Assembly (NCBI GenBank): GCA_963705675.1
Contig: CAVPKR010000155.1
Span: forward strand, 1,089 to 65,088
From: Terriglobia bacterium
GTDB lineage: Bacteria; Acidobacteriota; Terriglobia; Bryobacterales; Bryobacteraceae
Length of the DNA stretch: 64,000 nucleotides
Direction of reading: 5' to 3'
Shown: in pieces, positions 4,374-59,789 of the stretch
Layout of the letters: the number at the start of each line of letters is the position of its first letter
How positions within the stretch are numbered: position 1 is the stretch's first letter
The notes under the pieces: generated by a model
What the model saw: the letters and a program-made list of their open reading frames with translations, nothing else
The model's database searches: none
Told to the model about the DNA's origin: nothing
Translations under genes and position numbers: made by a program

Positions 4374-4419
4374 AACTAATCCGATACGGCGATCAATCGT
4401 ACACCTTTCGTTACACGTT

Positions 4420-18658: not shown

Positions 18659-18698
18659 GAAGATAGCTACGTTATTCGACGCCCGAAGTTCGCAGAAA

Positions 18699-33540: not shown

Positions 33541-34882
33541 AAAAGATACGCCACCGCCAGATCGATGTGGTTATTCAACCGGTTGCCGATTCCAAGATAC
33601 GTCGTCCGGACCTGGCTGGCCTCCAGGCTCAGCATCACATTGGGCGCGATGCGGTACATCGCGTTCGCGGCGAAAGCTTCATTCAAGCCGATGTAGCCGG
33701 CGCGCAGGTTCGAATTCTGATCGTCCTGGCGGCCGCCGTAAATGTCGAACGCCAGGCGCTCGGTTACGGGAAAGCGCAGCTGCGCCCAGCCGCCGGTGCT
33801 GTGAACCGGCGTGGACCCGTCATAATGCGGAATAAAACCCTGAGGCAGAGCCCCAAGATTCGCGACATTTTGGCCGTTATAGAAGAAGCCCGTGAACTCG
33901 ACAAACTTTACCGGCCGGATCAGCCAGTCGAGCGAAAACAGATGGGAGGATACATTTGACGAGCCGACGGTGCTCGCGTTTTCGTGAAACCCGGGCGCGA
34001 TTTCGATGCGTGTATGCTCGCCCCACTGGCGCCAAAGCTCGAAGCGGCCTTCGACGCCCGGCTGCGCGTGTTCGACGGGAAGTCCGGTAAGAGGAGCCGG
34101 AACATAGGCGTTGTAACCCGTCGATTCGGCGCCGGGCTCGCGCGTCTGCACCACGCCCACCTGCGCGCGAAGGCCGGAATCCTTCGCGAAATGGATCCGC
34201 TGTTCGACGCGAATTTGCGGCTGCCAGAGCCACAGATTCCCCGCCCCAGTGAGCGGCGAGACGCCGACCTGCGCGAAGGAATTCGGATCGCGCGGGGAAA
34301 TAATCGGCTTATCCTGTCCGAATAGAACGCTGGTTTGATTCCAATCCAGCGAAATAGTCGCGGTCCTCAAGCGAATCAGATGATTCAGCGATCCGGCGGA
34401 CCCGCCGAATAGATCGAGAGACAGCGCACCGTCACTTTGCCCCCGAAGATCGACTGCGGGCTGTCGTAGACCAAGCCGAGGATGCTTTGGCGTAGCGATC
34501 CTCCGCCGGTCGCATCCGCGGGCGTGAGTGGCGCGATGGTCGTGTTCTCCGTGCCGCCGTTGTAGCGGCCGTTCGCATAAGCATTGAACAACGCCATTCC
34601 AGTCACCGTGATGGGCAGCTTCTGCGACGACGCGACTTTGGTTTGCTCCAGCTCCTCCACTCGCGCCTTCTGGACTTGAGCTTGCTCCTCTGCCGGCTCA
34701 GCCGCTGGTGCCGCCCCGGATCGCGCCACCGCCAGCTCCTGCCGCAGCGACTTAACTTCCTGATTCAGAGACCGGTTCGCGTCTTCCAGCTTCTGCAAAC
34801 GATCCAGAATTTCGCGGATCTCGGGAGTGGATTGCGCCTGCAGCGCGACTCCTCCGATGACGACCAGCAGTAGGCGTTTCAT
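33537..34882 (-). CDS. Outer-membrane beta-barrel porin with an N-terminal coiled coil, frameshifted near 34430
   Basis: Signal peptide plus coiled coil (ILDRLQKLEDANRSLNQEVKSLRQEL) in ORF 34385-34882. After a 1-nt shift the text reads GALSLDLFGGSAGSLNHLIRLRTATISLDW..., continuing into ORF 33537-34370. That ORF ends in an aromatic residue (VAYLF*), typical of OM barrels. Confidence 0.65.
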
Positions 34883-35259
34883 TTTTTCAGCAACTGCTCC
34901 AGTTTCTCCCGCACTTTCACGGGCGAATATGGCTTCATGAAAAAAGCGTTGGCGCCGAGCCGTTCGACACGCTGCGGCGCATCCGGATCGGCCGAGCCGG
35001 TGATCACCATGATGGGCACGTCGCGATGCACGCTGTGGCCGCGGACACGCTCAATCAGCTCGAACCCATCCATGCCCCGCATTTCGAGGTCGGTCACGAT
35101 CGCCGAAAGATCGCTTGCCGCGTTGTTCTCGATCAGCCCCCAAGCCGCTTCGCCGCTCGGAACGGTGAGGACACTCAGGTCCTCCAACCCGCTGAATACG
35201 ATCTCAAGCATGGAGGCGCACGTATCGGCATCCTCGACGATCAGCACGGTGCGTTGCAT
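34879..35259 (-). CDS. Single-domain response regulator (CheY-like receiver)
   Basis: MQRTVLIVEDADTCASMLE...AIVTDLEMRGMDGFELIERVR...PIMVITGS...FMKPY. The stop overlaps the porin ATG as ATGA. Confidence 0.85.
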   Translation of the reverse strand: MQRTVLIVEDADTCASMLEIVFSGLEDLSVLTVPSGEAAWGLIENNAASDLSAIVTDLEMRGMDGFELIERVRGHSVHRDVPIMVITGSADPDAPQRVERLGANAFFMKPYSPVKVREKLEQLLKK

Positions 35260-35324
35260 TTCCTTATTATGGTGGCCCCGACTGAAACAATCTTGCGCGA
35301 ACTTGTAAAAGAATTGTAAACCGT

Positions 35325-36011
35325 TTACGGCAGGAATCGATAGCCGACGCCGTGAACGGTCAGGAAGTGGCGGGGCGTGTTGGGGTCGGATTCCAGCTTC
35401 TGGCGGAGCTTGACCACGTGCGCGTCGACGGTCCGAGTGTTCGGAAACGACTCGTAGCCCCACACGGAATTGAGAATCATGTCGCGCGTCAGCGGCCGGT
35501 CGGGATTCGAAAGGAAATAAGTCAGCAGATTATATTCCGCGGGAGTCATTTTAAGAGGCTCGCCGTGGCGGCTCACCACGCGTCGCTCGAACTCGATCAG
35601 CACGTCTCCGAACTGCGCCACTTTGCGCGCATCGGGCGAGGTGCGGCGGAGCACGGCCCGGATTCTCGCCAATAGCTCGCGCGCCCCAAATGGTTTGACT
35701 ACATAATCGTCGGCGCCGATTTCAAGCAGCAGTACCTTGTCGACCTCTTCGCCAACCGCGCTCAACACGATGATCGGCGTGTTCACGTTACCGGCGCGAA
35801 GCTGCTTCGAGATCTCGATTCCACTCATGCCGGGCAGGCGCAAATCCACCAGGATCAGGTCGGGCTTGGCGCTGAGGGCGCGCTCATATCCGGTTTTGCC
35901 GTCAGAAGCGAGCAGGGGCCGATAGCCTTCCTGTTCCAGCATCAGGCCGATGGTATCGCGCAGACTTTCGTCATCGTCGATCACCAGGATGGTCGTCATC
36001 GTATGCCCCAT
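35325..36011 (-). CDS. OmpR/PhoB-family response regulator
   Basis: The receiver is ILVIDDDESLRD...LILVDLRLPGMSGIEI. The winged helix is TPAEYNLLTYFLSNPDRPLTRDMILNSVWGYE...RTVDAHVVKLRQKLE...LTVHGVGYRF. Confidence 0.9.
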   Translation of the reverse strand: MGHTMTTILVIDDDESLRDTIGLMLEQEGYRPLLASDGKTGYERALSAKPDLILVDLRLPGMSGIEISKQLRAGNVNTPIIVLSAVGEEVDKVLLLEIGADDYVVKPFGARELLARIRAVLRRTSPDARKVAQFGDVLIEFERRVVSRHGEPLKMTPAEYNLLTYFLSNPDRPLTRDMILNSVWGYESFPNTRTVDAHVVKLRQKLESDPNTPRHFLTVHGVGYRFLP

Positions 36012-36159
36012 TCTACCGGACGCGGCGCGTTTACAAGACTCGTAGACGTGTGCCGCTGTAATCTGGATGCAATCCGGAGCAGCGTGCAGCGTGGCTCCTC
36101 GGGGTGATTGGCAGAGAGGGGTCCTGCCAGTCGGCTTCTCGGAGCCGCGCAGCTTGTGA

Positions 36160-37703
36160 TTAGCGGCTCGCCTGGACCGGATCCATCCGGCGCCAGAGCC
36201 GGTACCCGGACACAGTTACATCGGGATTCTGAACCGGCTGATAATTCTTCTCAAGCCAGGCTTCCAGTGTTTCGTACCGGAAATCGAGATTCGAACCATT
36301 CGGAAAAATGCGCAGGAATTCTTCCCGCGATAGCTTCAGATACAACAGCCATTCCGGCGGATCGGCCTCCAGACCTTCCAATGCGACACCTGCGTCGCGA
36401 GCCGTCGACATACCTGGATTGAGATACGCATATCGCGTCGGATTTTTCGCCTGCGTCAGGAAATAATCGATCGGCATGTAGGGATACACGAACAATCCCT
36501 CGCCCGGACGCACTTTCGCCAGCAGATTCTGCGTCGCGGCAAGCTGCCCTTTGTCGACGCGCAGTGTCCCGACCGGCGAAGCCACCCGCCTAGTACCGCT
36601 AAACGTTATGAAGAAATTCGACGCGAAGATGCCCGCCATGATCATCGTGGCGATCGTAAAGCGCGGGCCTCAACCGGTCCGGAATCATCTGCGCAAGCGC
36701 CGCCCCCGCGAGCACGTAAGAAAGCGCCGCGATGAAAGCCAGGTGCATCACGTCGGCGCGCGGAAACAGAGTCGCCACAAATGCGATCAGCGTCAGCAGG
36801 AGCAACTGAACGGTAGGGCGGATTTGCTCCGGGATCGTCCGCCGCCACATCGCGGCCGCCCATGCCAACAGCGCCACCGGCGGCAGGATCGCAGGCAAGG
36901 CCACGCAGGCGACCAGGATCGCCCGGATCGTCCATTCATACCCGCCGCTGGACCCTTCGAACAAGGCTCGATAGCCGCCGACGATGGTTCCGTAGGGCAT
37001 CGTATTGACGCCCGCATAATTCTGTCTCAACCACAGCAGTTGTTCGAGGAAAGCACGCAAGCAACCTTTCTCGATCAGCCATCCAAGGGCTAGCGCCGAT
37101 ACAGAGACGACGCCAGCGGCCCATGGAAGCAAAGCCTTGCGGCGTTCGCGGGAAACCGCTAGCCACAAGGCTTCCGCGGCTCCCACCATCGCCACTGTAG
37201 GCGTGCACCAAGTTGCTGCGGCAAGCAGAGCTCCGCTCGCTGCCCACTTTATTTTGGACGATGCTGACACCCCGATCGCGATTCCGGCTAAGGCGAGCGT
37301 AGCGCTGTCCCATCGATGCTGCGCCGTCAGAAACGCCGGGTCGGCGATCTGGAATCCGGCGAAGACGAACAGACACTACCGCCGCTGCACGAATTGATGC
37401 CAACCGCGCGGTCAGCCAAAAAACCAGCGCGCATTGGATTGAAAAATCCAGGATCACGATCAGGCGGCCAGTGATCAGCGAAATTCCGAAAACTCGGAAC
37501 ACCGCGGCTTGAAGCCAATAACTCCCTGGGCTCATGTAGGCCCAGAAATCGACATAGGGGCGGGCTCCTGCCGCGACCCGCTGCGCCGGCTCCAGCAGGA
37601 TTCCTTCATCGTTCGTCGCCACCACGCGATTTCCGTGGAACGCCAGCAGCAGAATCGCGACGCCCAGAAACACCGCGCCCGCGATGCGCGCCGTGCGGTT
37701 CAT
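36160..37703 (-). CDS. GT-C-fold membrane glycosyltransferase (ArnT/PMT-like, GT39/83-like), read across 2 frameshifts (~37383, ~36660)
   Basis: ORFs 36936-37703, 36599-37270 and 36160-36645 join into one polytopic protein of about 515 aa. An acidic first-loop motif follows TM1 (NDEGILLEPAQRVAAGARPYVDFW). ATG 37703 overlaps the GT2 stop as ATGA. Confidence 0.6.
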
Positions 37704-38671
37704 CGAAGGACGCTCGCCGTATTGCGGACCGGCGTCTTACCCAAAATGAAGTACGGTGCGTCCCTTTGCAGCAGGAATGCTGGCGAATTCCGGCGGTTCG
37801 CGATCAGGAATGAAAATAGAATCGCGAACGTCAGGGATTGGAAAATCAGGCCGATCAGGCATCCGGTGACGAAGCTGGTCCAGCCGGGGATGGGGATAAA
37901 CGCGCGAATCGCAATCGCGGCCAAGCCCAGGACCGAGAAGATGGCCGACGCGGTCAAGAGGCGGGCGCTTACCTGATCGCTATAAACCGAGATCGCCGAC
38001 AGCGCGTGCATCAGCAAGCTGACGAAATTCATCTTCGACTTGCCAGTCAGGCGTTTGCCTCTCGGAATCGGAACCAGTTGCCGTGGCAGGCGGGCGCGAA
38101 ACACGGCGGCGGAATAGTTATTCCACAAATCCGGCGATGCCATCATCCTCGACAAGGCTCCTCGCGACATCACGCTGAAATTACCTACCCGTACTTCCAC
38201 TCCGGTCAAAATTCGATGCACCACCTGATAAGCCCTATAGAAAAACTGGAACATGAAACTTTCCATGCGGCGTGTTCGAGCGGCGAAAACGATGTCGCGC
38301 CGGCCGCTGCCTTCGTGTTCGTCGAGCAGCACCGGGAGATCCATCGCGCGATCTTCTCCATCGCCATCCATTACCAGGACCGTCTCTGCGTCGCTGAACT
38401 CGTGAACATGGTAAAGACCCAGCGCGATGGCTCGCTGATGTCCCAGATTGCATCGCAGGTGCAAAACGTCCACGGCATCCAGCGAATGAAAATTCTCCCC
38501 CGGCCAATTCTCCGGGAGCGGCTCAGTCGAGGCATCGTCCACCACCAGCACGGAGGCTCGACGATGTGCGCCGGCCAGCGCCTGGTCCACCAGCGGCAAC
38601 AGCAGCCGGACGGCGTCCCAGTCATTGAAGCTGGGGATCAGGATGACCAGAGATGGACGAGTGGCGGCCAT
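37700..38671 (-). CDS. GT2 polyprenyl-phosphate glycosyltransferase (ArnC / Dpm1-like) with C-terminal TM helices
   Basis: LVILIPSFNDWDAV...VLVVDDASTE...LGHQRAIALGL...VLVMDGDGED, followed by two C-terminal TM segments. Start at ATG 38671 (MAATRPS). The upstream part of ORF 37700-39046 is Arg-rich non-coding-looking sequence. Confidence 0.75.
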   Translation of the reverse strand: MAATRPSLVILIPSFNDWDAVRLLLPLVDQALAGAHRRASVLVVDDASTEPLPENWPGENFHSLDAVDVLHLRCNLGHQRAIALGLYHVHEFSDAETVLVMDGDGEDRAMDLPVLLDEHEGSGRRDIVFAARTRRMESFMFQFFYRAYQVVHRILTGVEVRVGNFSVMSRGALSRMMASPDLWNNYSAAVFRARLPRQLVPIPRGKRLTGKSKMNFVSLLMHALSAISVYSDQVSARLLTASAIFSVLGLAAIAIRAFIPIPGWTSFVTGCLIGLIFQSLTFAILFSFLIANRRNSPAFLLQRDAPYFILGKTPVRNTASVLR

Positions 38672-38733
38672 GGGCGCTAACGTCTTGTCATCGGCATTCC
38701 GTCGGCGCTTCTGTAGAGTATCCTCATAGTGAT

Positions 38734-40011
38734 ATGGCTTTCTCCCCGTTGCTAAACGTTCGCCAGCATTTTCCCGACCGAGGCATCTCCGACATTCCCG
38801 GCGCGATTTCAAAGGAACTGGGTGCCTCCGGCTTCGCGTCTGCGTTGAAACCAGGGGCTCGCGTCGCAATCGGCGTCGGAAGCCGGGGCATCGCGAATAT
38901 CGCGACCATCGTCCGCTCTGTAGTCGATTTCTGGAAATCGCGCGGCTTTCACCCGTTTCTTTTTCCCGCCATGGGGAGCCATGGAGCAGCCACCGCCGAA
39001 GGACAAGCAAATGTTCTGGCGCATTACGGAATCCACGAAGCCGCAATGGGGTGTCCAGTTCTGAGCGCTCTGGACGTAGTTTCGCTAGGCAAGACCGACG
39101 ACGGAATCGAAGCGTTCATGGACCGGAATGCCTACTCGGCGGACGGCGTTTTCCTCATCGGGCGTGTGAAATGGCACACCGATTTCGCAGGGAAAATCGA
39201 AAGCGGGCTGTTTAAGATGATGGCGATCGGCCTCGGCAAGTTCGCGGGGGCGCAGCGGTATCACACTTACGCGTACCGGCTCGGATTGGAATATGTGATC
39301 CGCACCGTCGGCCGTCAGGTGCTGAAGAGCGGCAAGATTCTGGGAGGCTTGGCGATTCTTGAGGATGCGAATCACCATACCGCGCAGCTGACCGCTGTCC
39401 CGGTCGGCGAAATGGAGCGTCAGGAAGAGGAACTGCTGACGCTGGTCAAGTCCTGGATGGGCCGCATTCCGGTGCCGCTCGACATTTTGATCGTCGACGA
39501 AATCGGCAAGACGTATTCCGGCGCCGGGATGGATACGAAAGTAGTGAATCGCGGAGTGAATGGCGAGTATAATCCTTGGGACACCGCGCCGGTCATCCAT
39601 CGAATTTTCATCCGCGGTTTGAGCCCGCATAGCTACGGAAATGCGGTCGGGCTCGGCATGGCGGACGTGGTGCATGACCGCCTGCTTCAGGCCATCGACT
39701 GGAATCCGACGCAGATCAACTCCTTTACAGCTTCGACTCCTGCGGCTATTCGTACGCCGGTTCATTTTTCTACCGATCGCGAATGTCTCGAAAAATTCTG
39801 GCCTACGGTGGGTAAGCACGATCAGCGCGAGGTGACTCTCGGATGGATCGCGAATTCGATGGAACTCGGCGCCATGCGCCTAAGCGAAAATCTTCGCGCC
39901 GACATTGAAGCGAATCCAAATCTTGAAATCGCCGGTGAACCGGAGCCGTTCGAATTCGACGCCAAAGGCGATCTCGAGCCGATCACGGACGCAGTCGTCT
40001 TAACCCATTAA
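38734..40011 (+). CDS. Lactate-racemase-N-terminal-like (DUF2088) domain protein
   Basis: MAFSPLLNVRQHFP...VAIGVGSRGIANIATIV...PAMGSHGAATAEGQANVLAHYGI.... Family assignment is from memory. Confidence 0.45.
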   Translation: MAFSPLLNVRQHFPDRGISDIPGAISKELGASGFASALKPGARVAIGVGSRGIANIATIVRSVVDFWKSRGFHPFLFPAMGSHGAATAEGQANVLAHYGIHEAAMGCPVLSALDVVSLGKTDDGIEAFMDRNAYSADGVFLIGRVKWHTDFAGKIESGLFKMMAIGLGKFAGAQRYHTYAYRLGLEYVIRTVGRQVLKSGKILGGLAILEDANHHTAQLTAVPVGEMERQEEELLTLVKSWMGRIPVPLDILIVDEIGKTYSGAGMDTKVVNRGVNGEYNPWDTAPVIHRIFIRGLSPHSYGNAVGLGMADVVHDRLLQAIDWNPTQINSFTASTPAAIRTPVHFSTDRECLEKFWPTVGKHDQREVTLGWIANSMELGAMRLSENLRADIEANPNLEIAGEPEPFEFDAKGDLEPITDAVVLTH

Positions 40012-40013
40012 CG

Positions 40014-41566
40014 ATGCACATCCCGCGACTCGCGACGGCCCTTGGGGTCTTAATCCTTAGTGTGCCTTCGTTCGTGTTCGTCTGGCATAACCGGGACGTC
40101 CCGCACTTCGGAGTCTTGCAGGATGATGGACTATACTTCATCGGCGGAAAGGCTCTCGCGACGGGAACCGGTTATAGGATTCTGAGTCTTCCCGGCGAGC
40201 CGTATCAAACCAAGTATCCGCCTCTGTATCCCCTGTATTTGTCGCTCGCGTGGCGGATGAATCCCGCATATCCAGCGAATTTGCCGATCGCGCTGATTCT
40301 TTCTTGGCTCGCCCTTTTGCCGGTTCTGGTGATGTTTCATGTCTGGCTGCGGAGGAACGCCTTCCCCGCCCGCAGCGCCTGGATCGTCACGGCGTTGTTC
40401 GCGCTGAATCCCTATGTTTTGTTCTTTATCTCGAATCTGGGTTCCGAGCTTTTCTTCTTGCTGTTCCTGTTCGGCGCGATGTACTTTGCGGAAAAATATG
40501 GCCGCGATTCCGCCCTAATTGCCGGGTTGCTCGCGGGAGCCGGATATCTGGCTCGAACTGCTGGCATCGCGATGCTGCCGGCCGCCATCCTGTATTTCTT
40601 GTGGATCAAGCAACCGCGGCGCATTGGGTGGTTCGTCCTCGGAATGACGCCGGCAATTGCCGGTTGGACCGTCTGGTCTCACCAGCACGCCGCCCCCGGC
40701 CACGACATCGTGACCCTCTGCTATACCAACTACATCGGTTATCAGTTTTACAACGTCGGCTGGGACAACTTCGCCTCGGTCTTGTGGCAGAATACGAGCG
40801 CCTTGCTGGTTTCGATGGGTTCCCTGGTATTCCCCGAAATGATTCAGGGCCTGCCCGAGAAAATGCTGCTGCCGTCGCTGGCCATCGCGACCATCCTCGG
40901 TGGAGTGCGGCTGGTCCGCAGCGGATTCGCGCGCCTGTACGGGCTATTTGCGGCGATTTCCTTGATGATGCTAGTGATCTGGCATTTCCCGCCCAATCAG
41001 CGATTCATTCTGCCGGTAGCTCCCCTGCTGCTGGCCTGTTTTTGGACCGAGGCGGTTCACTTTGCAGGGATGGTTCGAGGCGCATTTCGCCACCCCGACC
41101 GGAGCCAGCGGGTAGTCGCTTACGCTTTCGCAGGATTTCTGGTCGCGATTCTAGCCACTGGAGCCGGGCTCCAGGTTTATATGTGGGCCAGTGTCCTGCC
41201 TGACCTGGCTCGCGAGGATCGCAGGAATGCCCGATCATTTCACGAATCCTATGAATGGATCGCTTCACATATCGACGTCACATCAAACATTCTATGGGAG
41301 AACGACACCGCACTATACCTATCGACGGCCGCCACTCGACGTCGTTTCTCATCCCGACGCGCCAATACTATGCAAAGGGAACAGATGAGGATCTGGCGCT
41401 CTATCAGAGGATCGATCGATACGCCCGCGAGCATGGTTTGGACTACGTGATGCTTCCCAAGATCGGTCCGCATCGGCAGGATAAGGTGTTGGAATTGGCG
41501 GCGGGGAATCCGGGCCTACAAAAGATTGACGAACAGGCGGGGACGGTTCTCTACAAGGTCCAATAA
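40014..41566 (+). CDS. GT-C-fold membrane glycosyltransferase paralog, frameshifted near 41327
   Basis: First-loop motif HFGVLQDDGLYFIGGKALATGTGYRILSLPGEPYQTKYPPLYP. ORF 40014-41450 joins ORF 41255-41566 as ...ALYLST-GRHSTSFLIPTRQYYAKG.... It is colinear with the 42034-43602 paralog. Confidence 0.65.
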
Positions 41567-41632
41567 AAATGCAGAAGGGAGCGAGCGCAGCTTTCGCCTT
41601 GCCCACTCCCAAATCCTGCGGTTAGGTAGTGT

Positions 41633-41824
41633 TTAGCTACCGGTGGTCGAAGCCGCCGTCATCACAGACGCGACCTTCGAGAAGATCGTGCTGATGCTCG
41701 TGGCAACACCCGGCATAATCGCGCCAGCCGCGACTGCAACAAAACCCGCCATCAGAGCGTACTCGATGAGGTCCTGTCCGCGCGTATCTTTCCAAACCTG
41801 CAACTTCAAGATAAGATTCTTCAT
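41633..41824 (-). CDS. flp: Flp/Fap-family type IVb pilin
   Basis: MKNLILKLQVWKDTRGQDLIEYALMAGFVAVAAGAIM... contains the G/xxxxEY prepilin processing motif and a hydrophobic stretch. The tail is Ser/Thr-rich (VMTAASTTGS). Confidence 0.85.
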   Translation of the reverse strand: MKNLILKLQVWKDTRGQDLIEYALMAGFVAVAAGAIMPGVATSISTIFSKVASVMTAASTTGS

Positions 41825-41875
41825 TTTTCCTCTAATCTCCTCTCCCTACGGTGCGCGACAGGTCCCTGCCGCTGT

Positions 41876-41904
41876 ATAAAATCTAACATCGCTCCGGCTT
41901 GCAA
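41876..41904 (-). promoter_or_regulatory. Candidate sigma-70-type promoter for flp (TTGCAA-N17-TTTTAT)
   Basis: The minus strand reads TTGCAAgccggagcgatgttagaTTTTATacagc, followed by the GGAGAGGAG ribosome-binding region and the ATG. Confidence 0.3.
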
Positions 41905-42033
41905 AGAATCAGGCTAATTGCCTAATGCGCCCGCTGAAAACTCTCAGGTCTTCCAGCTTTTGGGCCGCTGGCCGTACCTTTCGGACCACTCCAAGCACCC
42001 CGCCGGTTGAGGTGTATGGTAACGTTTATCCGT

Positions 42034-43602
42034 ATGACTTCGAGGCTCCAGAGTGCCTTTGGCTTAGTCATTCTGATAACTTTATCGGCCTGGATCGCCT
42101 TGAACAATAGCGACTTGCCCGAATTTGGTGCGAATCACGACGATGGCATATACTTCGCCTCAGCAAAGTCCTTAGCTGAGGGCCAAGGGTATCGGATTCC
42201 CAGCCTGGTTGAGGACCCCTATCAGACAAAATACGGTCCTCTGTTCCCTCTTTACATGTCGCTGGCCTGGAGGATCCAACCGTCTTTCCCCGCCAATCTT
42301 CGAGTTGCAGCCTGGCTTGGATGGCTAACCATCCCTGTTTTCTTGGCTTTGAGCCTGTTGTTATATCAAAGTTGGGGGATCAAGGGTGTGCGTTTGTGGA
42401 TTCTGTTGGTGCTGCTGGCGGTAAATCCATACGTGATCCACTTTGGAATCAGCATCTTCTCGGAAATGTTCTTCACCTGTCTGATTCTGGGTGCCCTGCT
42501 TTGCTTGACTCGATCGGGTGTAAAATGGGCGATTTGGGCGGGCGTGCTGGGCGGATTGGCTTATCTAACTCGTTCAGCCGGGTTAGCTTTGCTCATTTCC
42601 GCGCCGATTGTCTTGCTATGGCGAGGAGAGCGTCGCCGTGCGATGTGGCTGGCAGGCTCGATGTTGCCTTTCGTCATCGGCTGGACCGTCTGGACCCGCG
42701 GACATCAATTCAAAGGCGCTGACGAGATCCTGCTATATTATACAAACTACTTTGGTTATGCTCGCCAAGCGATTTCTCTATCCGATCTTCCCGTAGTCCT
42801 GTGGAAGAACGCCGACGGCTTGCTTTACGCAATGGGAGCGATGGCGCTGCCGGAGATTACGTCGGCGCTGCTGGTGAAAATTCTGACCCAAGTGTTGGGG
42901 ATCGCGATGATCGCGGGGATCGTCAGGATGGCGCACCGGGGTGTCGGATGGCACTACGCGGCCTTTGGCGTGATTTCGTCGGGCATGCTGCTGGTTTGGT
43001 ATTTCCCGCCGAATGAGCGATTTATCCTCCCATTGATCCCGTTTCTTCTAGCCGGATTGCTGACCGAGATGGACCACTTGCAGGGCATGCTTCGCGGAGC
43101 TTTGACGCATAAAGACTGGTCCCAGCGGATCGTCGCGGCGGGATTTGGGGTGGTCCTTGCGATTGTGCTGCTGGGCGCGGTGGCGCTTCAATTCTATACG
43201 GTACTCTCGCTGATGCCGGACGCGGCCCATCAGCGACGGCAGCTCGCAGCGGAAAATCGTGTGGCTTATCAATGGATTGCGGAAAACATCCCGCGCGATG
43301 CCGCATTCATTGCTTACGAAGACCCCCGGTTCTATCTCGAAACCGGACATCCGGCGATGACTTTGAATCTTCCGCCGAAATTCTGGTATCGCGGCGACCG
43401 CGCGGGGATGGTGGCGTTCTACTCGCAAATTGCTGAATTTGCTAGGGCGCACGGCATCGGATACGTCTATTTCACCTCCGAAGACCTGGGCCGCGAAATG
43501 GCTGGGGAGGACAAGGACGCGGTTTTGAAGGCCATCGCAACGAATCCCGAGCTGACGGCGATAGAGCACACCAAAATCGGCACCATCTATAAGATTCGCT
43601 GA
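42034..43602 (+). CDS. GT-C-fold membrane glycosyltransferase paralog (intact)
   Basis: MTSRLQSAFGLVILITLSAW...EFGANHDDGIYFASAKSLAEGQGYRIPSLVEDPYQTKYGPLFP. It has about 11-12 TM segments and a soluble C-terminal domain. It resembles 40014-41566 along its whole length. Confidence 0.7.
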   Translation: MTSRLQSAFGLVILITLSAWIALNNSDLPEFGANHDDGIYFASAKSLAEGQGYRIPSLVEDPYQTKYGPLFPLYMSLAWRIQPSFPANLRVAAWLGWLTIPVFLALSLLLYQSWGIKGVRLWILLVLLAVNPYVIHFGISIFSEMFFTCLILGALLCLTRSGVKWAIWAGVLGGLAYLTRSAGLALLISAPIVLLWRGERRRAMWLAGSMLPFVIGWTVWTRGHQFKGADEILLYYTNYFGYARQAISLSDLPVVLWKNADGLLYAMGAMALPEITSALLVKILTQVLGIAMIAGIVRMAHRGVGWHYAAFGVISSGMLLVWYFPPNERFILPLIPFLLAGLLTEMDHLQGMLRGALTHKDWSQRIVAAGFGVVLAIVLLGAVALQFYTVLSLMPDAAHQRRQLAAENRVAYQWIAENIPRDAAFIAYEDPRFYLETGHPAMTLNLPPKFWYRGDRAGMVAFYSQIAEFARAHGIGYVYFTSEDLGREMAGEDKDAVLKAIATNPELTAIEHTKIGTIYKIR

Positions 43603-43632
43603 AGTTTCCGCCGATTTCTTAAGGGAGATCGA

Positions 43633-45138
43633 ATGTCCTCCCTGGCGTCATCCATCCCGCAAACGATTCCTCAGCCGCGTACGGAATTGTGGTGCCGCAG
43701 GCTGCTATGGATGTTTGCGGCGGTCGCTTTCGTGTGCATCTTGTTCCACTTGGCGATGCTCTTCTGGGCTCAGAATGCCTTTTCGGGGCCGGAATCGGTG
43801 GTGAGCGCGCAGTCTCAGATGCTGGCCCACGATGGGACGCTTTACTACGATCTGAACCGGTATCCTTACACGGTTAGCGCTTATACGCCGATTTTCTATC
43901 TGACCGAAGCCGCGCTTCGAAAGGCCGGGCTGCCGGCATTGGCCGCCGGGCGGCTGATCAGCTTTGGCTCGCTGATCGGAATCGTCATTCTGATCTGGGG
44001 GCTGACCATGCTCTACACGGGGGACCGGTACTGCGCCTGGACGGCCGCCCTTCTCGCGGCGTCCACGTCGCTGCTACTGAATTGGGGAACCATCGGGCAG
44101 GTCGACACGCTGGCCGCCTGCTTCGCGATGGCCGCATTCTGGCAGTTTTCCAAATACCTTCTTCGAGGAGATAAAGCGCTTGTGACCGCCGGAATCTTCG
44201 CGACCCTTGCCTTCTTTACCAAGCAGACGATGGTCGCGTGCCCGCTTGCGATTTTCGTCGTCCTGTTGATAGAGCGTCCCAGAGCTGCTTTGCGATTCGG
44301 GATTGGTTTGGCCGCTGTCGTAGCCGGGGTCGCGCTGGGAATCAATGGGATCACGCAGGGACATTTCTTTGCCAACACAGCTCGCGCGAATCTGAACCCG
44401 TTTGCTCTGTCGAAACTAAAGCCGCATTTTATGGTCCTGATCGGCGTGACGCCGATGATGGTGGTGGTACTGGCTGGAGCGAAACCTGCGTGGCGGGCCG
44501 GGCGGGCGTTATTCCTCTATCTGGGATTCGCAGGCGCGATTTTCCTATTGACCGCGGCGAAAATCGGGTCGGACACGAACTATCAGATCGAATTTACCAT
44601 CCTGCTGATTCTGTGCGCCTGCCTGGCGCTGCACTCGCTCGATTTCTTTCCGCTCACCTTCGGCGGCAGCAAGCACTGGATCACCCTCCTGCAAATCCCA
44701 CTGGCCGTGCATCTGGTATTGAATTTCAGAATCACGACCAACATCCTGCTGACCCGGGTCGCGATCGAGCAGCAATTTCGAGCCGAAATATCCGCGCTGA
44801 AACCCTACGTCAATGGACGGCTGTTATCGACAGACTACAATGCGAGTGAACGGCTGCGCGGATCGATCGAAGTCGAAACACTGATTTACGGCCTTCTGGT
44901 TCGCGCGGGCGTGGTCGATCCCACACCGGTGCGCCGGGATATCGCGGCAGAGTCTTTCGGAACGATCATTCTTTTCGAAGATGCGCATCATCCGGCTGCC
45001 GGCCGCGACCTCGAAATATCCGCGCTTCCGGAGGCGCAGATGGAAGAGATCCGCTTACACTATAAGCTGGCCGCGCATATTCCGGGGCCCTACAGCGACG
45101 GCGTGTACGTGTACCAACCGATCCCATCACCACGATGA
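43633..45138 (+). CDS. GT-C-like polytopic membrane protein (more divergent fourth paralog)
   Basis: 501 aa, about 11 TM segments. The first loop reads SQMLAHDGTLYYDLNRYPYTVSAYTPIFY. It also has a FFTKQT motif. Confidence 0.55.
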   Translation: MSSLASSIPQTIPQPRTELWCRRLLWMFAAVAFVCILFHLAMLFWAQNAFSGPESVVSAQSQMLAHDGTLYYDLNRYPYTVSAYTPIFYLTEAALRKAGLPALAAGRLISFGSLIGIVILIWGLTMLYTGDRYCAWTAALLAASTSLLLNWGTIGQVDTLAACFAMAAFWQFSKYLLRGDKALVTAGIFATLAFFTKQTMVACPLAIFVVLLIERPRAALRFGIGLAAVVAGVALGINGITQGHFFANTARANLNPFALSKLKPHFMVLIGVTPMMVVVLAGAKPAWRAGRALFLYLGFAGAIFLLTAAKIGSDTNYQIEFTILLILCACLALHSLDFFPLTFGGSKHWITLLQIPLAVHLVLNFRITTNILLTRVAIEQQFRAEISALKPYVNGRLLSTDYNASERLRGSIEVETLIYGLLVRAGVVDPTPVRRDIAAESFGTIILFEDAHHPAAGRDLEISALPEAQMEEIRLHYKLAAHIPGPYSDGVYVYQPIPSPR

Positions 45139-45782
45139 CCACCGCCATCAAAAATTATCACGAGGTCCGCTTCCAGTACGATCCGCGCCGCGCGGTTGTG
45201 TGGGTCGCGATTTGCCGGTATCTTCAGCGATGGGTTTCCGAAGACGAAGGGCTGATCGAGCTGGGCGCCGGGTACGGCGAATTTTCGAAGAATATTCGGG
45301 CAGGCGCGAAATGGGCGCTGGACATGAATCCGGAACTGGCTGCGCATTGGGGCCGGGATATCCGTCCGCTGATTCAGTCCGCAACCGATCGGCTACCGGT
45401 TGCGAGTGAGAGCGTCGCCACAGTGTTCGCTTCAAACTTCTTTGAGCACTTTACGATTGAGCAGGGCGAAGTGATTCTGAGCGAAGCCTATCGCGTGCTT
45501 CGGCCCGGCGGACGGCTGATAGTAGTCCAACCGAATTTCCGGCTGGAGCCGCGACGCTATTACGACGACTACACGCATCGGACCGCCTACACCGACAACG
45601 GATTCACAGATTTTCTACGCTCGTTGGGATGGAACATCGTGCACTCGGAACCTCGCTTCACGCCGTTCAGCATGAAGTCGCGCTTTCCGGTGGCGGGCTG
45701 GCTGATACGGCTCTATCTGGCACTGCCGTTCCGCCCCTTCGCGGGACAATTCATGCTGGTCGCCGAAAAGCCCGCGCGGTAG
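45135..45782 (+). CDS. Class I SAM-dependent methyltransferase
   Basis: Motif I is LIELGAGYGEF. The post-I/II region is ATVFASNFFEHF...VLRPGGRLIVVQPN. The ATG overlaps the upstream stop as ATGA. Confidence 0.8.
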   Translation: MTTAIKNYHEVRFQYDPRRAVVWVAICRYLQRWVSEDEGLIELGAGYGEFSKNIRAGAKWALDMNPELAAHWGRDIRPLIQSATDRLPVASESVATVFASNFFEHFTIEQGEVILSEAYRVLRPGGRLIVVQPNFRLEPRRYYDDYTHRTAYTDNGFTDFLRSLGWNIVHSEPRFTPFSMKSRFPVAGWLIRLYLALPFRPFAGQFMLVAEKPAR

Positions 45783-45798
45783 GATAGATTTACATCTC

Positions 45799-47322
45799 AT
45801 GATAAAGGCCGGCCAGAAGGCTCCCGATGTAGCGCGCGCGATTCCAACAGGCGAGCCTTGTCTGCTGGTGTTTCTTGAAACCGACTGCCCCACCTGCCGG
45901 CTTGCGATGCCGTATCTCAACAAGTTGGCGAGGCAATCGGCGCAGGTTTTAGGGATTTCGCAGGATTCCGCGGAGTTGACGCGTATGTTCGTCGAACAGA
46001 CTTCAGCTGCGTTTCCGGTGGACGTGGATCAGGGATTGCGAATCTCGCGGGCTTTCGATCCGGTATCGGTGCCCACGTTTTTTCTGATCGGCGCGGACGG
46101 ACGCGTGATCCGTACTGTGATCGGTTTCGATAAGAGCGATCTGAACGCCGTGGCCGCAGCGATGGGACGCGGAGCGATTGCCGATGCATATGACGGGAAT
46201 CCGCCGAGCAAGCCTGGATGCTCTTCCCGTCACTTGGAAACGGCTGACGATAGTCCGGCAGCGGAGGCTTTGAACCTTCACGCCGCGCGTGGAACGCGGG
46301 CGTCTCGAATTGAGATTTCTGAAGACCCCTACGATTACTCGATGCGGGCTTTCGGGGATCCATTGCCGGTGATCCCGCCTACAGTGGAGCGCGTGGACCG
46401 GATGATCGGCGAGCTGGATCCTGCGGAAATCGTGGGGCGGATTCCGCCGTGCTACGGCGAGGCGACCATCGAAAAGATCGCGGCCAACGCGGTGATGGCC
46501 GGGTGCGTTCCTCAAATGATGCGGGTGCTAATCCCGTTAGTGCGCGCGGTTTGCGATGAGCGATTCAACGCCCATGGCGTGCAGGCGACCACCCATTTCG
46601 CGGCGCCTCTGATTATCATGAACGGTCCGGTTCGCGACGAGCTGGGGTTCTGGTACCGCAAGAATGTATTCAGCAATGTCGCGCGCGCCAACAGCACTTT
46701 GGGCCGCGCTCTCCAGTTGATGCTGTTGAATCTGGGAGGCGCGCGGCCAGATGGGATCGACATGTCGGCGCTGGGAAATCCCGGTAAGTTTTCATATTGC
46801 ATCGCTGAAAACGAAGAGGAGAGCCCGTGGGAGCCGCTGCAAGTCGAGCAGGGATTTTCGCGCTCCGACAGCACATTGACACTGTTCGCGGGGGAAGCGC
46901 CGAATGGAGTGAGCGAACACATGTCGCGGACCGCAACGGGAGTGCTGACGGCGATCTCGCGGGCGCTCGCCACGGTGTGGAGCTATCGGACATGCATGAG
47001 TATCGAGGCTATGGTCGTCCTGTGCCCGGAGCACGTGAAGACGATTCATCGCGACGGATTCAGCAAGTCCGACGCGCGCGATTTTCTGTTCCGCAACACG
47101 GGCATTCCCGTGCGGGCATACGATATAGAAGGCGAGGGCGCGCAGCACGTGAAACTGTATCGCGAAATCGAGATCGGGGGCGAGCGCTGCTATCAGAAAT
47201 TCCGCGCGCCGGAATCGATCAAGATTGTGGTAGCCGGTGGAACCGCCGGTAAATTTTCAGCCGTGATCGGCAGTTGGAGCGCGGGGCCGCGCGGCAGCCA
47301 GATGGTGACTTATCCATGCTAA
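45799..47322 (+). CDS. Thioredoxin-fold (TlpA/redoxin-like, CPTC) domain fused to a ~370-aa domain of unknown function
   Basis: The N-terminus is MIKAGQKAPD...LLVFLETDCPTCRLAMPYLNKL...VPTFFLIGADGRV. I cannot assign the C-terminal domain (...IEKIAANAVMAGCVPQMM...HGVQATTHFAAPLIIMNGP...). Confidence 0.7.
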   Translation: MIKAGQKAPDVARAIPTGEPCLLVFLETDCPTCRLAMPYLNKLARQSAQVLGISQDSAELTRMFVEQTSAAFPVDVDQGLRISRAFDPVSVPTFFLIGADGRVIRTVIGFDKSDLNAVAAAMGRGAIADAYDGNPPSKPGCSSRHLETADDSPAAEALNLHAARGTRASRIEISEDPYDYSMRAFGDPLPVIPPTVERVDRMIGELDPAEIVGRIPPCYGEATIEKIAANAVMAGCVPQMMRVLIPLVRAVCDERFNAHGVQATTHFAAPLIIMNGPVRDELGFWYRKNVFSNVARANSTLGRALQLMLLNLGGARPDGIDMSALGNPGKFSYCIAENEEESPWEPLQVEQGFSRSDSTLTLFAGEAPNGVSEHMSRTATGVLTAISRALATVWSYRTCMSIEAMVVLCPEHVKTIHRDGFSKSDARDFLFRNTGIPVRAYDIEGEGAQHVKLYREIEIGGERCYQKFRAPESIKIVVAGGTAGKFSAVIGSWSAGPRGSQMVTYPC

Positions 47323-47836
47323 CGACTTTAGTTAATCCTTGTGACGAGCGGACGGTTTCATCGACGGCGGCTCCGCGGCTGGACACGCTGGCGGGGAAAA
47401 CGGTGGCGCTGCTCGATATCAGCAAACCCGGCGGCAGTGTTTTCCTCGACCGGCTCGAAAGAATTCTGATGGAGCGCCACGCGGCGGGCCGAGTGATCCG
47501 GCTCATGAAGCCGACGTTCGCCAGGGCACCCGGCAGGTGCTGGATCAGCTGCGCAGCGTGGACGCGGCGATTGAAGCGCTGGCGGATTGAGGGTCCTGTA
47601 CCACGTGCAGTTTGCACGACACGATCCAGTTAGAGAATTGGGGAATTCCCGCGGTGCCGGTGGCCACGCACGAGTTTATGCTGGCGGCGAGAGCGCAGGC
47701 CGCGGCTTTGGGGAGGCCGGACTTCGACGCGGTTTACGTCGCGCATCCTATTCAGGATCAGACCGGCGCGGAGATTGAGGCTCGGGCGGATGCGGTTGCG
47801 GGCGAGATCGTGGCGCGGCTCATCGGGCATAGTTGA
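47316..47836 (+). CDS. Candidate UGSC-family selenoprotein: in-frame TGA (47588-47590) read as Sec; also one frame change near 47535
   Basis: ATG 47316 overlaps the upstream stop. Frame 0 reads MLTTLVNPCDE...RVIRLMKPTFARAPG. It then continues in the frame of ORF 47612-47836 as VLDQLRSVDAAIEALAD-TGA-GSCTTCSLHDTIQLENWGIPAVPVATHEF...VAHPIQD.... About 82 sense codons follow the TGA. Confidence 0.55.
47591..47627 (+). promoter_or_regulatory. SECIS-like hairpin immediately 3' of the in-frame TGA
   Basis: GGGUCCUGU (47591-99) pairs with ACACGAUCC (47619-27), giving 8 pairs including one G-U wobble, plus one C-C mismatch. A 4-nt bulge ACCA follows. CGUGCA (47604-09) pairs with UGCACG (47613-18). The loop is GUU, and the loop G lies 19 nt after the UGA. 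Confidence 0.5.
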
Positions 47837-47885
47837 CCAGAATGATTGAAACCTGGCGTTGCTCATTTGCGTAGAGTTCTTTCAT

Positions 47886-50253
47886 ATGGACCTCAAGTTC
47901 GCCCTGCGATCGCTTCGAAAGAGTCCGGGGTTCACTGCGCTGGCCGTGCTGGTGATGGCGCTCGGGATGGGGGCGAACACCGCAGTTTTCAGCGTAGTTA
48001 ACGCGGTGCTGCTGCGGCCGCTGGGGTATCGCGATCCCGATCGGATCGTGGTGCTCACGTCGTCGTGGAAAAAAGGGGTGCTGGCTGGGGCGCTATCTAA
48101 ACAGGTTTCCGCACTGGACGCTCAGGATTGGCACGATCAAAGCAGCGCGTTCCAGTGGATGGCCTATTATGCGACCACGCAGGCTTCGGTGCTCGCCGGT
48201 GAGGCTGCTGCTTACGGGCGTGTGACCCAAGTTACGCCGGAGTTTTTTCGGGTTTTTGGAATCGAACCCGCCGCGGGGCGTATTTTCCCAAGCAGCGGGA
48301 CCGTGGTGATCAGCCACGCGTATTGGCGCAGCCAGTTTGAAGCCAATCCCAGCGCGATCGGACGCAGCGTGCGGATGTTCGAAAGGACCTTCACCGTGGC
48401 GGGCATTATGCCCGAGGGGTTTAACGATCCGGTGCATAGCGATCTCTGGCTGCCGATCGAAATGAAGGCTCAGAAGCCCGAATATCGCGCGGGGCTCAAT
48501 TACGAATGCATCGCGAGGCTCAAGCCGGGCGTGAGCGTGGAACAGGCACAGGCGCAGCTGACGTCCATCGCCACCCGGCTGACGCAGCGATATCCCAATA
48601 CGAACGAAGGCCGCGGCGTTTCTGTCACGCGATTGAGAGACGAGACGGTCAGCGAGGTTCGAACCACGCTGTATACTTTTGCTGGGAGCGGTGGGAGTGG
48701 TGCTGCTGATCGCGTGTGCGAACGTCGCGACGCTGCTGCTGGCCAAGGCGACGGGACGGGCGCGGGAAATGGCGATTCGCGCCGCGGTGGGGGCCACTCG
48801 CGGGCGGATTCTCCGGCAGTTGATCACAGAGAGCCTGGTGTTATCGGTCATGGCGGGCGGCGTGGGACTGGTAGTGGCGATATGGGGATCGAAGGCGCTG
48901 GTCGCCCTCGCGCCGGCCGGGGTGCCGAGGTTGGCCAGCACGTCCACCGACGGGTGGGTTCTGATGTTCAATTTCGCGATGGCGGTCGTCGCGAGCCTGC
49001 TGTTCGGCTTGGTTCCCGCAATTCACGCGTCTCGGACGGATTTGAATCAGATGCTGCGCCGTGGGGCGGGAAGTTTGAACTCGATGCGGTCCGCGCTGGT
49101 GATCGCGGAGATTGCGATGTCGGTGATCCTGCTGGCCGGTGCGGGATTGTTGATGAAGAGCTTCATCGCTCTGCGCGGTGTAACGCTCGGATTCCAGCCG
49201 GAAAACGTGCTAGTGATGAAGACGACAGTTCCGGCATCGAGCGATTCGGGCACTCGTCGCGCCAACCAGTTTTTCAAAGGACTGCTGGCTGACATGGCGA
49301 CATTGCCGGGCGTGGAGGCTGCGGGCGCGACCACCTCGCCTCCAGGGCATATCGAAACGTCGACGCTGTACTGGATCGATCGGATCCCTAAACAATTGGA
49401 CATGAGCGGGACGCCGGCGTTGGTATCGGTGGTCGCGCCGGGCACGTTCCATGCTCTGGGAATTCCCCTGAAGCAGGGACGCGATTTCAACGATTCCGAC
49501 GGTCCCGGGACGCCATTCACCGTCATCGTGAATGACGCGCTGGTGCGAAAATCGTTTGCTGGGCAGGATCCGATCGGCCGCACTATCTTTTGTCCTTCCG
49601 ATTCGCTCGACGGGATGAAGATTGCCGGCGTAGTGGGCGACGTTCGACAGGAGGGGCAGGCGTACGCGCCGCAGCCGGAATGCTACATGCCCTACCAGCA
49701 GCATCGCTACAACGGGACCACCCTTAGCGTAGTCGTCAAGACCGCGGGCGATCCGCGGGGGCTGATGGACTCCCTGCGCAAGATGGTGGCGAATCGCTCG
49801 CCCGAAGTGTCGGTGGATTTCACTACGATGGGAGCGCTGCTCGCCGGGAACGTCGCGCCGGATTGGTTCAGAACGCTGCTGCTGGGAATCTTCGCGGGCT
49901 TGGCCGTCTGCCTGGCGATGGCTGGGGTCTACGGGGTAATGGCGTATCTGGCGGCGCAGCGGACCAGCGAGATCGGTCTGCGGATGGCGCTGGGCGCGTC
50001 CCCAGGTAACGTGCTGCGGCTTATCTTGGGCCAGGGGATGACGCTCGCAATGATCGGTGTCGCGCTGGGTCTCGCGGGAGCTTTCTCGGTCTCGCGGCTG
50101 CTCACCAGCATGCTGTTCGAGGTGAAACCTGGAGATCCGGCGATCTATGCGTCGGTCGCGGCAATGGTGGCGGCAGTATCGTTCGTGGCCAGTTATCTGC
50201 CTGCGCGCGCGGCTGCAAGTGTAGACCCGCTGGTCGCGCTGCGCAATGAGTAG
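47886..50253 (+). CDS. ADOP-family MacB-like ABC transporter permease, frameshifted in a T run near 48678
   Basis: MDLKFALRSLRKSPGFTALAVLVMALGMGANTAVFSVVNAVLLRPLGY. ORFs 47859-49292 and 48679-50253 join as ...VRTTLYT-LLGAVGVVLLIACANVATLLLA. The C-terminus is VDPLVALRNE. Confidence 0.85.
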
Positions 50254-59657: not shown

Positions 59658-59789
59658 TGGTAGTCGTCTCCTTGGGTTTGATTCTAAAGAGCCCCGAACG
59701 TTACATGTCGCGTCTAAAGCCGGCGGTAGAGTGAACTCGTCCCATCGCCCAAGGGGGCTATGGCGTTCGGTCTTCGGCGCGAAAAAGCC

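Follow-up and report, generated by a model that had tools for sequence, protein, structure and literature searches.

A conserved acidobacterial cluster of GT-C membrane glycosyltransferases around an flp pilin gene, a candidate periplasmic glycosylation island

In Pseudomonas aeruginosa the membrane protein TfpW O-glycosylates serine and threonine residues of the pilin, and its gene adjoins the pilin gene, lying downstream in the same operon. A second enzyme, PilO/TfpO, glycosylates the C-terminal serine of the pilin of P. aeruginosa 1244; TfpO is an oligosaccharyltransferase of the Wzy_C/O-antigen-ligase type that uses O-units linked to undecaprenyl pyrophosphate. Archaeal type IV pilins and archaellins are N-glycosylated by AglB, a GT-C enzyme homologous to STT3, and Tad pili are thought to be related to the archaeal type IV filaments. 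In Streptococcus mutans the pgf operon encodes a GT2 glycosyltransferase, an epimerase and two membrane proteins. Here we analyze a 64,000-nucleotide stretch of contig CAVPKR010000155.1 from a Terriglobia bacterium (the window), in which four genes for GT-C membrane glycosyltransferases, a GT2 gene and a gene for a LarA-like isomerase lie around flp, the gene for a small pilin of the Flp/Tad type. Our preferred reading, to which we give a probability of roughly 45%, is that this is a conserved periplasmic, lipid-carrier-dependent glycosylation island of Terriglobia/Bryobacteraceae-like Acidobacteriota that plausibly acts on the C-terminal tail of Flp, the presumed acceptor.

TfpW sets a precedent for pilin glycosylation by a GT-C-type enzyme (bioRxiv 10.1101/2020.04.19.049825). 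This arabinosyltransferase of the group IV pili is a polytopic membrane glycosyltransferase/oligosaccharyltransferase and is reported to have a proline-rich motif in common with the mycobacterial Emb arabinosyltransferases (GT-C). The first loop and the large C-terminal domain of TfpW lie in the periplasm, and its donor is a polyprenyl-phosphate-linked sugar of cytoplasmic origin, like that proposed here (bioRxiv 10.1101/2020.04.19.049825). Glycosylation of pilins alters the surface of the pilus and protects against pilus-specific phages (bioRxiv 10.1101/150227). The features of the window locus are as follows.

34879..35256 (start approximate), minus strand: CheY-like single-domain response regulator; context, kept upstream of the cluster in relatives.
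35325..36011, minus strand: OmpR-family response regulator (Pfam Response_reg and Trans_reg_C), 93-97% identical in relatives; context.
36160..37703, minus strand: GTC1, GT-C glycosyltransferase, ArnT/GT39-like, with two 1-bp insertions here; fold model made of an ortholog.
37700..38671, minus strand: GT2 glycosyltransferase with two C-terminal transmembrane (TM) helices, GtrB/ArnC/PgfS-like (PF00535); predicted polyprenyl-phosphate sugar synthase.
38731..40011, plus strand: LarA-like protein, predicted nickel-pincer-nucleotide (NPN)-dependent isomerase group 22 (NF052515); divergent from GT2 and 2 bp from GTC2.
40014..41566, plus strand: GTC2, GT-C paralog of GTC3, with one 1-bp deletion here; convergent with flp.
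41633..41824, minus strand: flp, Flp/Tad-type prepilin of 63 amino acids (Flp_Fap, E 4e-5; G/QDLIEY motif).
41825..42015, no strand: divergent intergenic region of 191 bp, common to flp and GTC3.
42016..43602, plus strand: GTC3, intact GT-C glycosyltransferase of an unnamed family (AlphaFold2 model, Foldseek).
43633..45138, plus strand: GTC4, PMT_2-type GT-C glycosyltransferase (PF13231); accessory module with the methyltransferase.
45135..45782, plus strand: class I S-adenosylmethionine (SAM)-dependent methyltransferase (Methyltransf_11), ATGA-coupled to GTC4.

The region studied in detail, 34.9 to 47.3 kb, therefore contains two response regulators (-), GTC1 (-), GT2 (-), the LarA-like gene (+), GTC2 (+), flp (-), GTC3 (+), GTC4 (+) and the methyltransferase (+), and then an AhpC/redoxin-fusion gene. 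An initial annotation made from the letters of the window placed the four GT-C genes, GT2 and flp correctly. For GTC3 it chose a start at 42034 (522 amino acids); from 42016 the protein has 528.

The proposed system differs from TfpW in several respects. TfpW acts on a type IVa pilin that has a globular domain; the pilin modified here would be of the Flp/Tad type and 47 residues long. The GT-C genes of the window are divergent or convergent relative to the pilin gene rather than co-operonic with it, several genes of different subfamilies are present, and their partners are GT2 and a LarA-like isomerase in place of DprE1/DprE2 and a GtrA-like flippase. With the three-component systems (GtrA/GtrB/Gtr-GT-C, CsbB/YfhO and pentofuranose; PMC11127046, PMC8035078) the locus shares a GT2 enzyme with C-terminal TM helices, predicted to make a polyprenyl-P-monosaccharide, that is paired and coupled in translation with an extracytoplasmic GT-C enzyme. 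Unlike them it has four GT-C genes rather than one and lacks a gene for a GtrA-type flippase; it neighbors a pilin gene in place of an O-antigen or teichoic-acid locus, and a homolog of nickel-pincer isomerases lies within its conserved core. In streptococci GtrB/PgtC2 and Pgf O-glycosylate Ser/Thr-rich, unstructured extracytoplasmic tails (PMC12041528). They too combine a GtrB-type GT2 with membrane glycosyltransferases, and the best NCBIfam match of the window GT2 is PgfS, although the match is weak. Yet these systems are Gram-positive and have broad protein targets, and the Pgf epimerase is a nucleotide-sugar 4-epimerase, not a LarA homolog.

All four large membrane proteins are GT-C glycosyltransferases by fold or family, and are presumably active as such. 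We modeled GTC3 with AlphaFold2 using 32 homologs, giving a predicted local distance difference test score (pLDDT) of 90.7 and a predicted TM-score (pTM) of 0.90. Comparison of this model with the PDB using Foldseek returned STT3 of the eukaryotic oligosaccharyltransferase, ArnT, DPY19, PglB, ALG9/12, PimE, AftD and PMT with a probability of 1.0, and the top 38 matches were all GT-C enzymes or PIGU-type relatives (E 5e-8 to 2e-2; TM-scores 0.29-0.58). The model of an ortholog 78% identical to GTC1 (pLDDT 83.7) matches AftA, STT3, DPY19, PglB, ALG9 and ArnT. GTC2, with its frames joined, is 39% identical to GTC3 over 520 residues (BLASTP, E 1e-124), and GTC4 belongs to the PMT_2 family. It is on these four results that the GT-C identity is based. 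Fold comparison alone was informative here, as sequence searches of the PDB with the GTC3-family profile, GTC4 and the GTC1-family profile gave nothing meaningful.

The relationship between the four is looser than first supposed. The initial annotation called them paralogs, but GTC2 and GTC3 are the only pair that BLASTP detects. GTC4 is related to the GTC3 family at the level of profiles only (hhalign probability 92%, E 7e-7), and we dropped GTC1 as a paralog of GTC3 or GTC4 since the comparison of family profiles by hhalign was insignificant (probability 4-6%), leaving a relation at the level of the fold. Nor are all four single reading frames, as had been assumed, for GTC1 is spread over three frames and GTC2 over two. 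A search for Pfam PMT_2 (PF13231, cut-off 26.1 bits), which had been suggested as a check, was passed by GTC4 with 42.0 bits, while GTC2 (22.8 bits) and GTC1 (17.6 bits) fall short and GTC3 matched no Pfam family at all. Many homologs of GTC1 nonetheless contain PF13231 and go by the names GT39 or ArnT-like. At 50% identity the GTC3 family falls into 1,128 clusters (E<=1e-30), with the listed members almost all unnamed or hypothetical.

Each protein had been credited with an acidic/aromatic motif in the first extracytoplasmic loop, and NDEGILL, QDDGLYF, HDDGIYF and AHDGTLYY are indeed all found after the first TM helix. In 32 sequences of the GTC3 family D42 and D43, just after TM1, are invariant, and in 32 of the GTC1 family D32 of the TNDEG motif is invariant, with E33 conserved in >=90%. 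The idea holds less well for GTC4. Its HDG is not among the family-conserved residues, the conserved acids being E54, D73, D131 and D158, and we have therefore rejected AHDGTLYY as its catalytic motif.

The GT2 protein matches PF00535 at 34.3 bits, and has two hydrophobic helices at its C-terminus (residues 234-263 and 266-292). Its best NCBIfam match is PgfS (47 bits against a cut-off of 500, E 2e-12), followed by ArnC (E 4e-5), both far below the equivalog cut-offs. The gene overlaps GTC1 by ATGA, and the pair is kept in the related loci L001-L007 and L105; in L041 GT2 adjoins the LarA-like gene. The C-terminal TM helices of this adjacent, coupled GT2 suggest a polyprenyl-phosphate-linked donor for the GT-C proteins. 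From its sequence, GT2 would make the polyprenyl-phosphate sugar that they use. At the other end of the cluster the methyltransferase (Methyltransf_11, 45 bits) likewise overlaps GTC4 by ATGA. Both couplings, and the assignments of the two enzymes, had been correctly read from the letters alone.

The LarA-like protein, which had been described as having a DUF2088/LarA-N-like domain, scores 442 bits with the NCBIfam model NF052515 ('NPN-dependent isomerase group 22'), whose cut-off is 400, in agreement with that description, although Pfam Lar_N itself reaches 20.1 bits, below its cut-off of 23.3. There are weak matches to the LarAH6 and LarAH10 models. Searches of PDB chains with the protein and with its profile found no sequence match, and hence gave no alignment to a solved LarA. 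On inspection by eye, the segments GSHG, KWH, GLFK and RYH are possible counterparts of the LarA residues. No match to larB-, larC- or larE-type Pfam families was found among the scanned open reading frames (ORFs) of the window, and 'group 22' is not described in the LarA-superfamily literature that we searched.

The product of flp has a predicted cleavage site after G16, giving a mature pilin of 47 amino acids with the C-terminal tail VMTAASTTGS. It reads MKNLILKLQVWKDTRG/QDLIEYALMAGFVAVAAGAIM..., that is a leader ending in glycine, then xxxxEY and a hydrophobic helix, and the gene is preceded by a strong ribosome-binding site (GGAGAGGAG...AGAGGAAAA). Against Flp_Fap (PF04964) the protein scores 23.7 bits, below the cut-off of 32.2. 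The precomputed Pfam assignments in the sequence collection give PF04964 for Flp and most of its homologs, which are named Flp family type IVb pilin. A hidden Markov model built from Flp sequences found a single flp ORF in the window, so that the gene is the lone pilin gene, on the strand opposite to its GT-C neighbors, that it had been taken for. A scan for promoters and terminators around flp gave one weak promoter-like match, on the plus strand in the intergenic region between flp and GTC3, and no terminator.

The best 120 homologs are 86-100% identical to the Flp of the window, a conservation that far exceeds that of the neighboring genes, and in 102 of them the mature length is 47 residues. 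Variation is unevenly distributed. The core, the first 37 residues, has just 26 variants, two of which account for 76 sequences, while the final 10, which are rich in S, T, A, Q, N and G, occur in 72 variants. The C-terminal residue is serine in 116 of the 120, and 83 end in ...QGS. This resembles the acceptor of PilO/TfpO, the C-terminal serine of a pilin, although PilO/TfpO is unrelated to the proteins of the cluster and we found no gene of its kind there. Some relatives have two or three tandem copies of flp by a GT-C gene (L008, 11707-12807; L105, 6033-6622), which vary chiefly in the leader and in a few residues of the tail.

The type of linkage can be considered from the same sequences. 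STT3 subunits head the structural matches of GTC3, and N-glycosylation by an STT3-like enzyme was examined as the main idea. We rejected it since a conserved N-x-S/T sequon is lacking from the Flp tail; NAS is present in only a few of the tail variants. The GTC3-family profile moreover has no match to STT3 at the sequence level and no WWDYG-type motif. Judged by these sequences, O-linkage is the more plausible for the Flp tail.

No tad or cpa assembly genes had been seen in the window, and our scan agrees: among 40 other ORFs of the window there is no Pfam match to the ATPase, platform, secretin, prepilin peptidase or pseudopilin, with about 10 smaller ORFs lying outside the scan. The machinery is present in the lineage, since Candidatus Solibacter usitatus has four CpaE and four CpaF genes (PMC3174227). 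As the related loci are also devoid of tad genes near flp, the assembly of this Flp into a pilus is a prediction only.

We compared around 100 related loci, of which 80 are metagenome loci obtained in a scan with the GTC3-family alignment; this was used in place of a single-protein scan of genome contigs, which gave just three loci. All come from related Terriglobia/Bryobacteraceae-like genomes or soil metagenomes, and in the 80 the GT-C proteins are 43-50% identical to GTC3. Their GT-C proteins were clustered into subfamilies, and synteny scored for each cluster. Close relatives (72-78% identity) share the order response regulator, response regulator, GTC1, GT2, LarA, GTC2, flp, GTC3 and AhpC fusion. 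For GTC2-type genes flp is convergent and 57-183 bp downstream in all 12 loci, and in L008 as well (13/13). GTC3-type genes (clusters 5, 7 and 9) have a divergent flp 104-466 bp upstream in 29 of the 30 loci where the sequence reaches far enough. The corresponding distances in the window are 66 bp from GTC2 and 191 bp from GTC3. In cluster 6 flp is either adjacent or 1.4-3.6 kb away, separated by genes for glycosyltransferases and membrane proteins (GT87, GT2, GT-C paralogs that are GTC1-like or of the GTC3 family, and unknown proteins of 580-620 residues). Overall there are 27.2 flp genes per 100 kb at distances up to 700 bp from these GT-C genes, compared with 0.5 per 100 kb at 3-10 kb.

Sampling from the side of Flp gave the same picture. 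A GTC3-family gene is divergent from flp in all 16 loci, which represent two Flp sequence types, and a LarA-like gene lies on the other side of flp in 12, the remaining four loci being too short there. Together with the GTC2- and GTC3-type genes, the gene for the LarA-like enzyme is among the three most constant neighbors of flp, which it adjoins in most loci, and is not the incidental neighbor that it had seemed. The position of flp is conserved both in close relatives and where the GT-C proteins are 43-50% identical. The GT2 plus GT-C model of periplasmic, lipid-carrier-dependent glycosylation is well supported, because the GT-C fold was found by structure prediction and flp is conserved in place, the two results of sequence analysis on which the initial annotation had let its idea stand or fall; synteny also supports a functional tie of the GT-C cluster to flp. 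These parts of the hypothesis made in the initial annotation have stood, and the Flp tail as acceptor remains at the strength of a suggestion.

Could this linkage be no more than ancestral gene order, inherited within one clade of soil Acidobacteriota with no functional connection? The restricted origin of the loci would fit, and housekeeping flanks (RmuC, an ADOP permease, TPR proteins and PBP1A) are common to the window and some of the loci. However, the core of LarA, flp and GT-C persists while the flanks vary widely from locus to locus, and it does so with GT-C proteins that have diverged to 43-50% identity. GT87, GT2, toxin-antitoxin modules and an acetyltransferase have been gained in the reshuffling around this core, in which flp and GT-C have stayed together. 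We therefore consider simple inheritance of gene order improbable.

The surroundings of flp are indeed variable. In L105, where GTC1 is 59% identical, GT2, PMT_2-like and GTC3-family genes lie on one side, followed by two flp genes, LarA and the GT2-GTC1 pair. Other loci have further glycosyltransferases (GT87, GT2, PMT_2-like) in the space beside flp, in the manner of a glycosylation island. In other lineages, represented by L089-L104 (e.g. L097, 7327-8876), the interval between flp and the LarA-like gene contains genes for a glyoxalase and a GNAT acetyltransferase and a toxin-antitoxin pair (RelB/ParE), and that between flp and the GTC3-type gene contains a truncated GT87 gene. From these inserted genes the flp neighborhood behaves as an insertion hot spot.

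Not every gene of the cluster belongs to this core. GTC4 and the methyltransferase are present in L006 but absent from L001, L003, L004 and L007, i.e. from four of five close relatives, and the pair is kept in >15 loci. Most of the loci of clusters 2 and 3 have it next door, usually divergent from the GTC3-type gene. GTC4 and the methyltransferase are a separable accessory module without a link to flp. Directly downstream, at 45799-47633 of the window, is a gene for a 507-residue fusion protein, which joins an AhpC/redoxin domain at its N-terminus to some 380 residues of unknown function, followed by one for a small UGSC-family protein; in every close relative this pair directly follows the glycosyltransferase cluster.

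The proposal that the island acts on Flp has to be weighed against a number of observations. The choice of Flp as acceptor comes from gene order alone. Clusters 2 and 3, about half of the GTC3-family loci sampled, have no flp nearby, so a tie to flp is not obligatory for the GTC3 family, and one GTC1 homolog stands alone in an unrelated context (L106). The 16 loci sampled from Flp represent only two or three lineages, and the sampled loci as a whole, from related soil Acidobacteriota, are not fully independent. No tad genes or prepilin peptidase were seen within 7-10 kb of flp in any related locus examined. There is no ORF for a GtrA-type flippase within 34879-47322, and no such Pfam match in the scans of the cluster or the window. 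The LarA-like assignment relies on a single NCBIfam model, with Lar_N under its cut-off and no match among PDB sequences. In the window sequence as given, the frames of GTC1 and GTC2 are broken. Lastly, the solved Tad pilus of Caulobacter has no glycan density (PMC10710030).

Several of these points would equally suit a different target. In the manner usual for three-component GtrB/GT-C systems, GT2 and the GT-C enzymes might decorate another envelope glycoconjugate, such as lipopolysaccharide/O-antigen, exopolysaccharide or other Ser/Thr-rich envelope proteins, with flp a co-regulated neighbor for adhesion or biofilm formation, e.g. via the adjacent two-component regulators. The lack of visible glycan on the Caulobacter pilin, the solitary GTC1 homolog, and the occurrence of GTC3-family clusters 2 and 3 and the GTC4-methyltransferase pair without flp are all in keeping with this, and an architecture of GT2 plus GT-C is common to the periplasmic modification of glycans of many kinds (PMC11127046, PMC8035078). 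The CheY-like regulator next to the cluster, a 125-residue ortholog of which is at the same place in L001, L003, L006, L007 and L065, has as its top NCBIfam match EpsW, an exopolysaccharide response regulator, but at 56 bits this is far under the cut-off. The spacing of flp to two GT-C subfamilies is tight and specific in orientation, and persists where the GT-C proteins have diverged to ~45% identity and despite insertions of unrelated genes; co-regulation by itself does not readily account for it. Moreover L008, from a Bryobacteraceae metagenome-assembled genome (MAG), retains just LarA, one GT-C gene and three tandem copies of flp amid otherwise unrelated neighbors. Another glycoconjugate as the target is the main rival reading and a real possibility, though we do not consider it probable.

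Taking glycosylation of Flp as the preferred reading, the following scheme can be drawn. From its family resemblance GT2 would load a sugar from a nucleotide sugar onto polyprenyl phosphate at the cytoplasmic face of the membrane. The lipid-linked sugar would then be flipped to the periplasmic face, for which the cluster encodes no dedicated flippase. GTC1, GTC2, GTC3 and the accessory GTC4, as GT-C proteins, would transfer it there. Flp is the most likely acceptor for GTC2 and GTC3, the two enzymes whose genes flank flp, as judged from synteny and sequence pattern only. The probable sites would be serine and threonine residues of the C-terminal tail, possibly including the near-universal terminal serine, and these would face the surface of the pilus. 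More speculatively, the LarA-like isomerase might make or epimerize an unusual sugar or substituent bearing a hydroxy acid. The role of GTC4 and the methyltransferase would be to attach a further sugar or to methylate it. The tad genes for assembly of the pilus must then sit elsewhere in the genome.

The disrupted frames of GTC1 and GTC2 also require explanation. Alignment with four relatives shows that GTC1 consists of three overlapping ORFs in three frames, resulting from 1-bp insertions near 37372 and 36660, and that GTC2 is spread over two frames by a 1-bp deletion near 41326. The orthologs in relatives are intact, with 514 and 517 residues. At least five further genes of the window are split by frameshifts (16236-18706, 25248-27780, 33537-34882, 47859-50253 and 52491-56185) and are single ORFs in relatives. 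They encode two ADOP-type MacB/FtsX permeases, a class A penicillin-binding protein, a 452-residue outer-membrane-like protein and a CheB/CheR-PAS-histidine kinase, the last a single gene of 1,219-1,237 codons in relatives. Because so many other genes are split alike and are intact in relatives, and the nearest relatives are long-read 'MFD' MAG assemblies of Terriglobia, the frameshifts in GTC1 and GTC2 are very probably assembly errors of the long-read type, as far as can be judged from sequence comparison. Two of the three indels are at short homopolymer runs. The split genes point to indel errors of this kind in the window, so that any pseudogene call there is unsafe.

Real decay of the cluster in this genome, leaving GTC3, GTC4 and GT2 as the functional remainder, would be in line with the three sites at which the window differs from four relatives by a single-base indel, and GTC2 is split in L001 as well. 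Against decay stand the like splits in at least five other genes that relatives keep intact, among them the class A penicillin-binding protein and the two ADOP-type permeases, the homopolymer runs at two of the three indels, and the long-read origin of the closest assemblies. We judged true pseudogenes to be less likely than assembly error, given that many unrelated, essential-type genes are also split, and consider decay of the cluster very unlikely.

Some other features of the window were observed. Between porin-like and CarboxypepD_reg-like genes at 33090-33541 is a tandem array of 5.4 copies of an 84-bp unit with 98% matches. The unit folds into a strong hairpin (-31.6 kcal/mol), and the array generates long spurious ORFs on both strands, one with a false 'Galaxin-like repeat' Pfam match; it is absent from all the related loci fetched. 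A gene for a KaiC-like double-domain ATPase (58143-59657) overlaps that of a histidine kinase (57019-58146) by 4 bp, with an 850-residue ORF (60578-63130) and a DUF3738 protein nearby, and the region 57019-63130 may be a KaiC-based signaling module. A putative envelope-stress module occupies 1493-5085 on the minus strand and consists of an extracytoplasmic function (ECF) sigma factor, an anti-sigma factor (zf-HC2) and a LiaF-like/DUF4097 'toastrack' membrane protein. An Rfam search of the window found no RNA family.

A bolder form of the proposal is that the locus is the first dedicated glycosylation machinery of an Flp/Tad pilin. Here an unannotated GT-C family with >1,100 clusters at 50% identity would O-glycosylate the hypervariable Ser/Thr tail, exposed at the surface, of an otherwise invariant Flp that abounds in soil Acidobacteriota, a LarA-family isomerase would help make the sugar or its substituent, and the variable set of GT-C, GT2 and GT87 enzymes would diversify the pilus surface, e.g. 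against Tad-pilus-specific phages. In this full form we consider it rather unlikely. Our literature searches found no report of an Flp pilin glycosyltransferase, nor of this locus in Acidobacteria. To our knowledge, the cofactor chemistry of the nickel-pincer (LarA) family has had no previous link to glycoconjugate biosynthesis.

If the acceptor is another envelope glycan, the cluster would be a more ordinary, multi-enzyme decoration system of the Gtr-like kind. A fold and likely role are assigned to a large GT-C family without a Pfam model of its own, and a LarA-type nickel-pincer enzyme is placed in the context of glycosylation. Tad/Flp pili are among the most widespread adhesion organelles of bacteria, and the locus offers a concrete, testable candidate for their glycosylation, in the form of a gene set conserved around a near-invariant Flp in very abundant, poorly studied soil Acidobacteriota. 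It suggests that these organisms may diversify the surface of the Tad pilus through a variable island of glycosyltransferases, and not through the core of the pilin.

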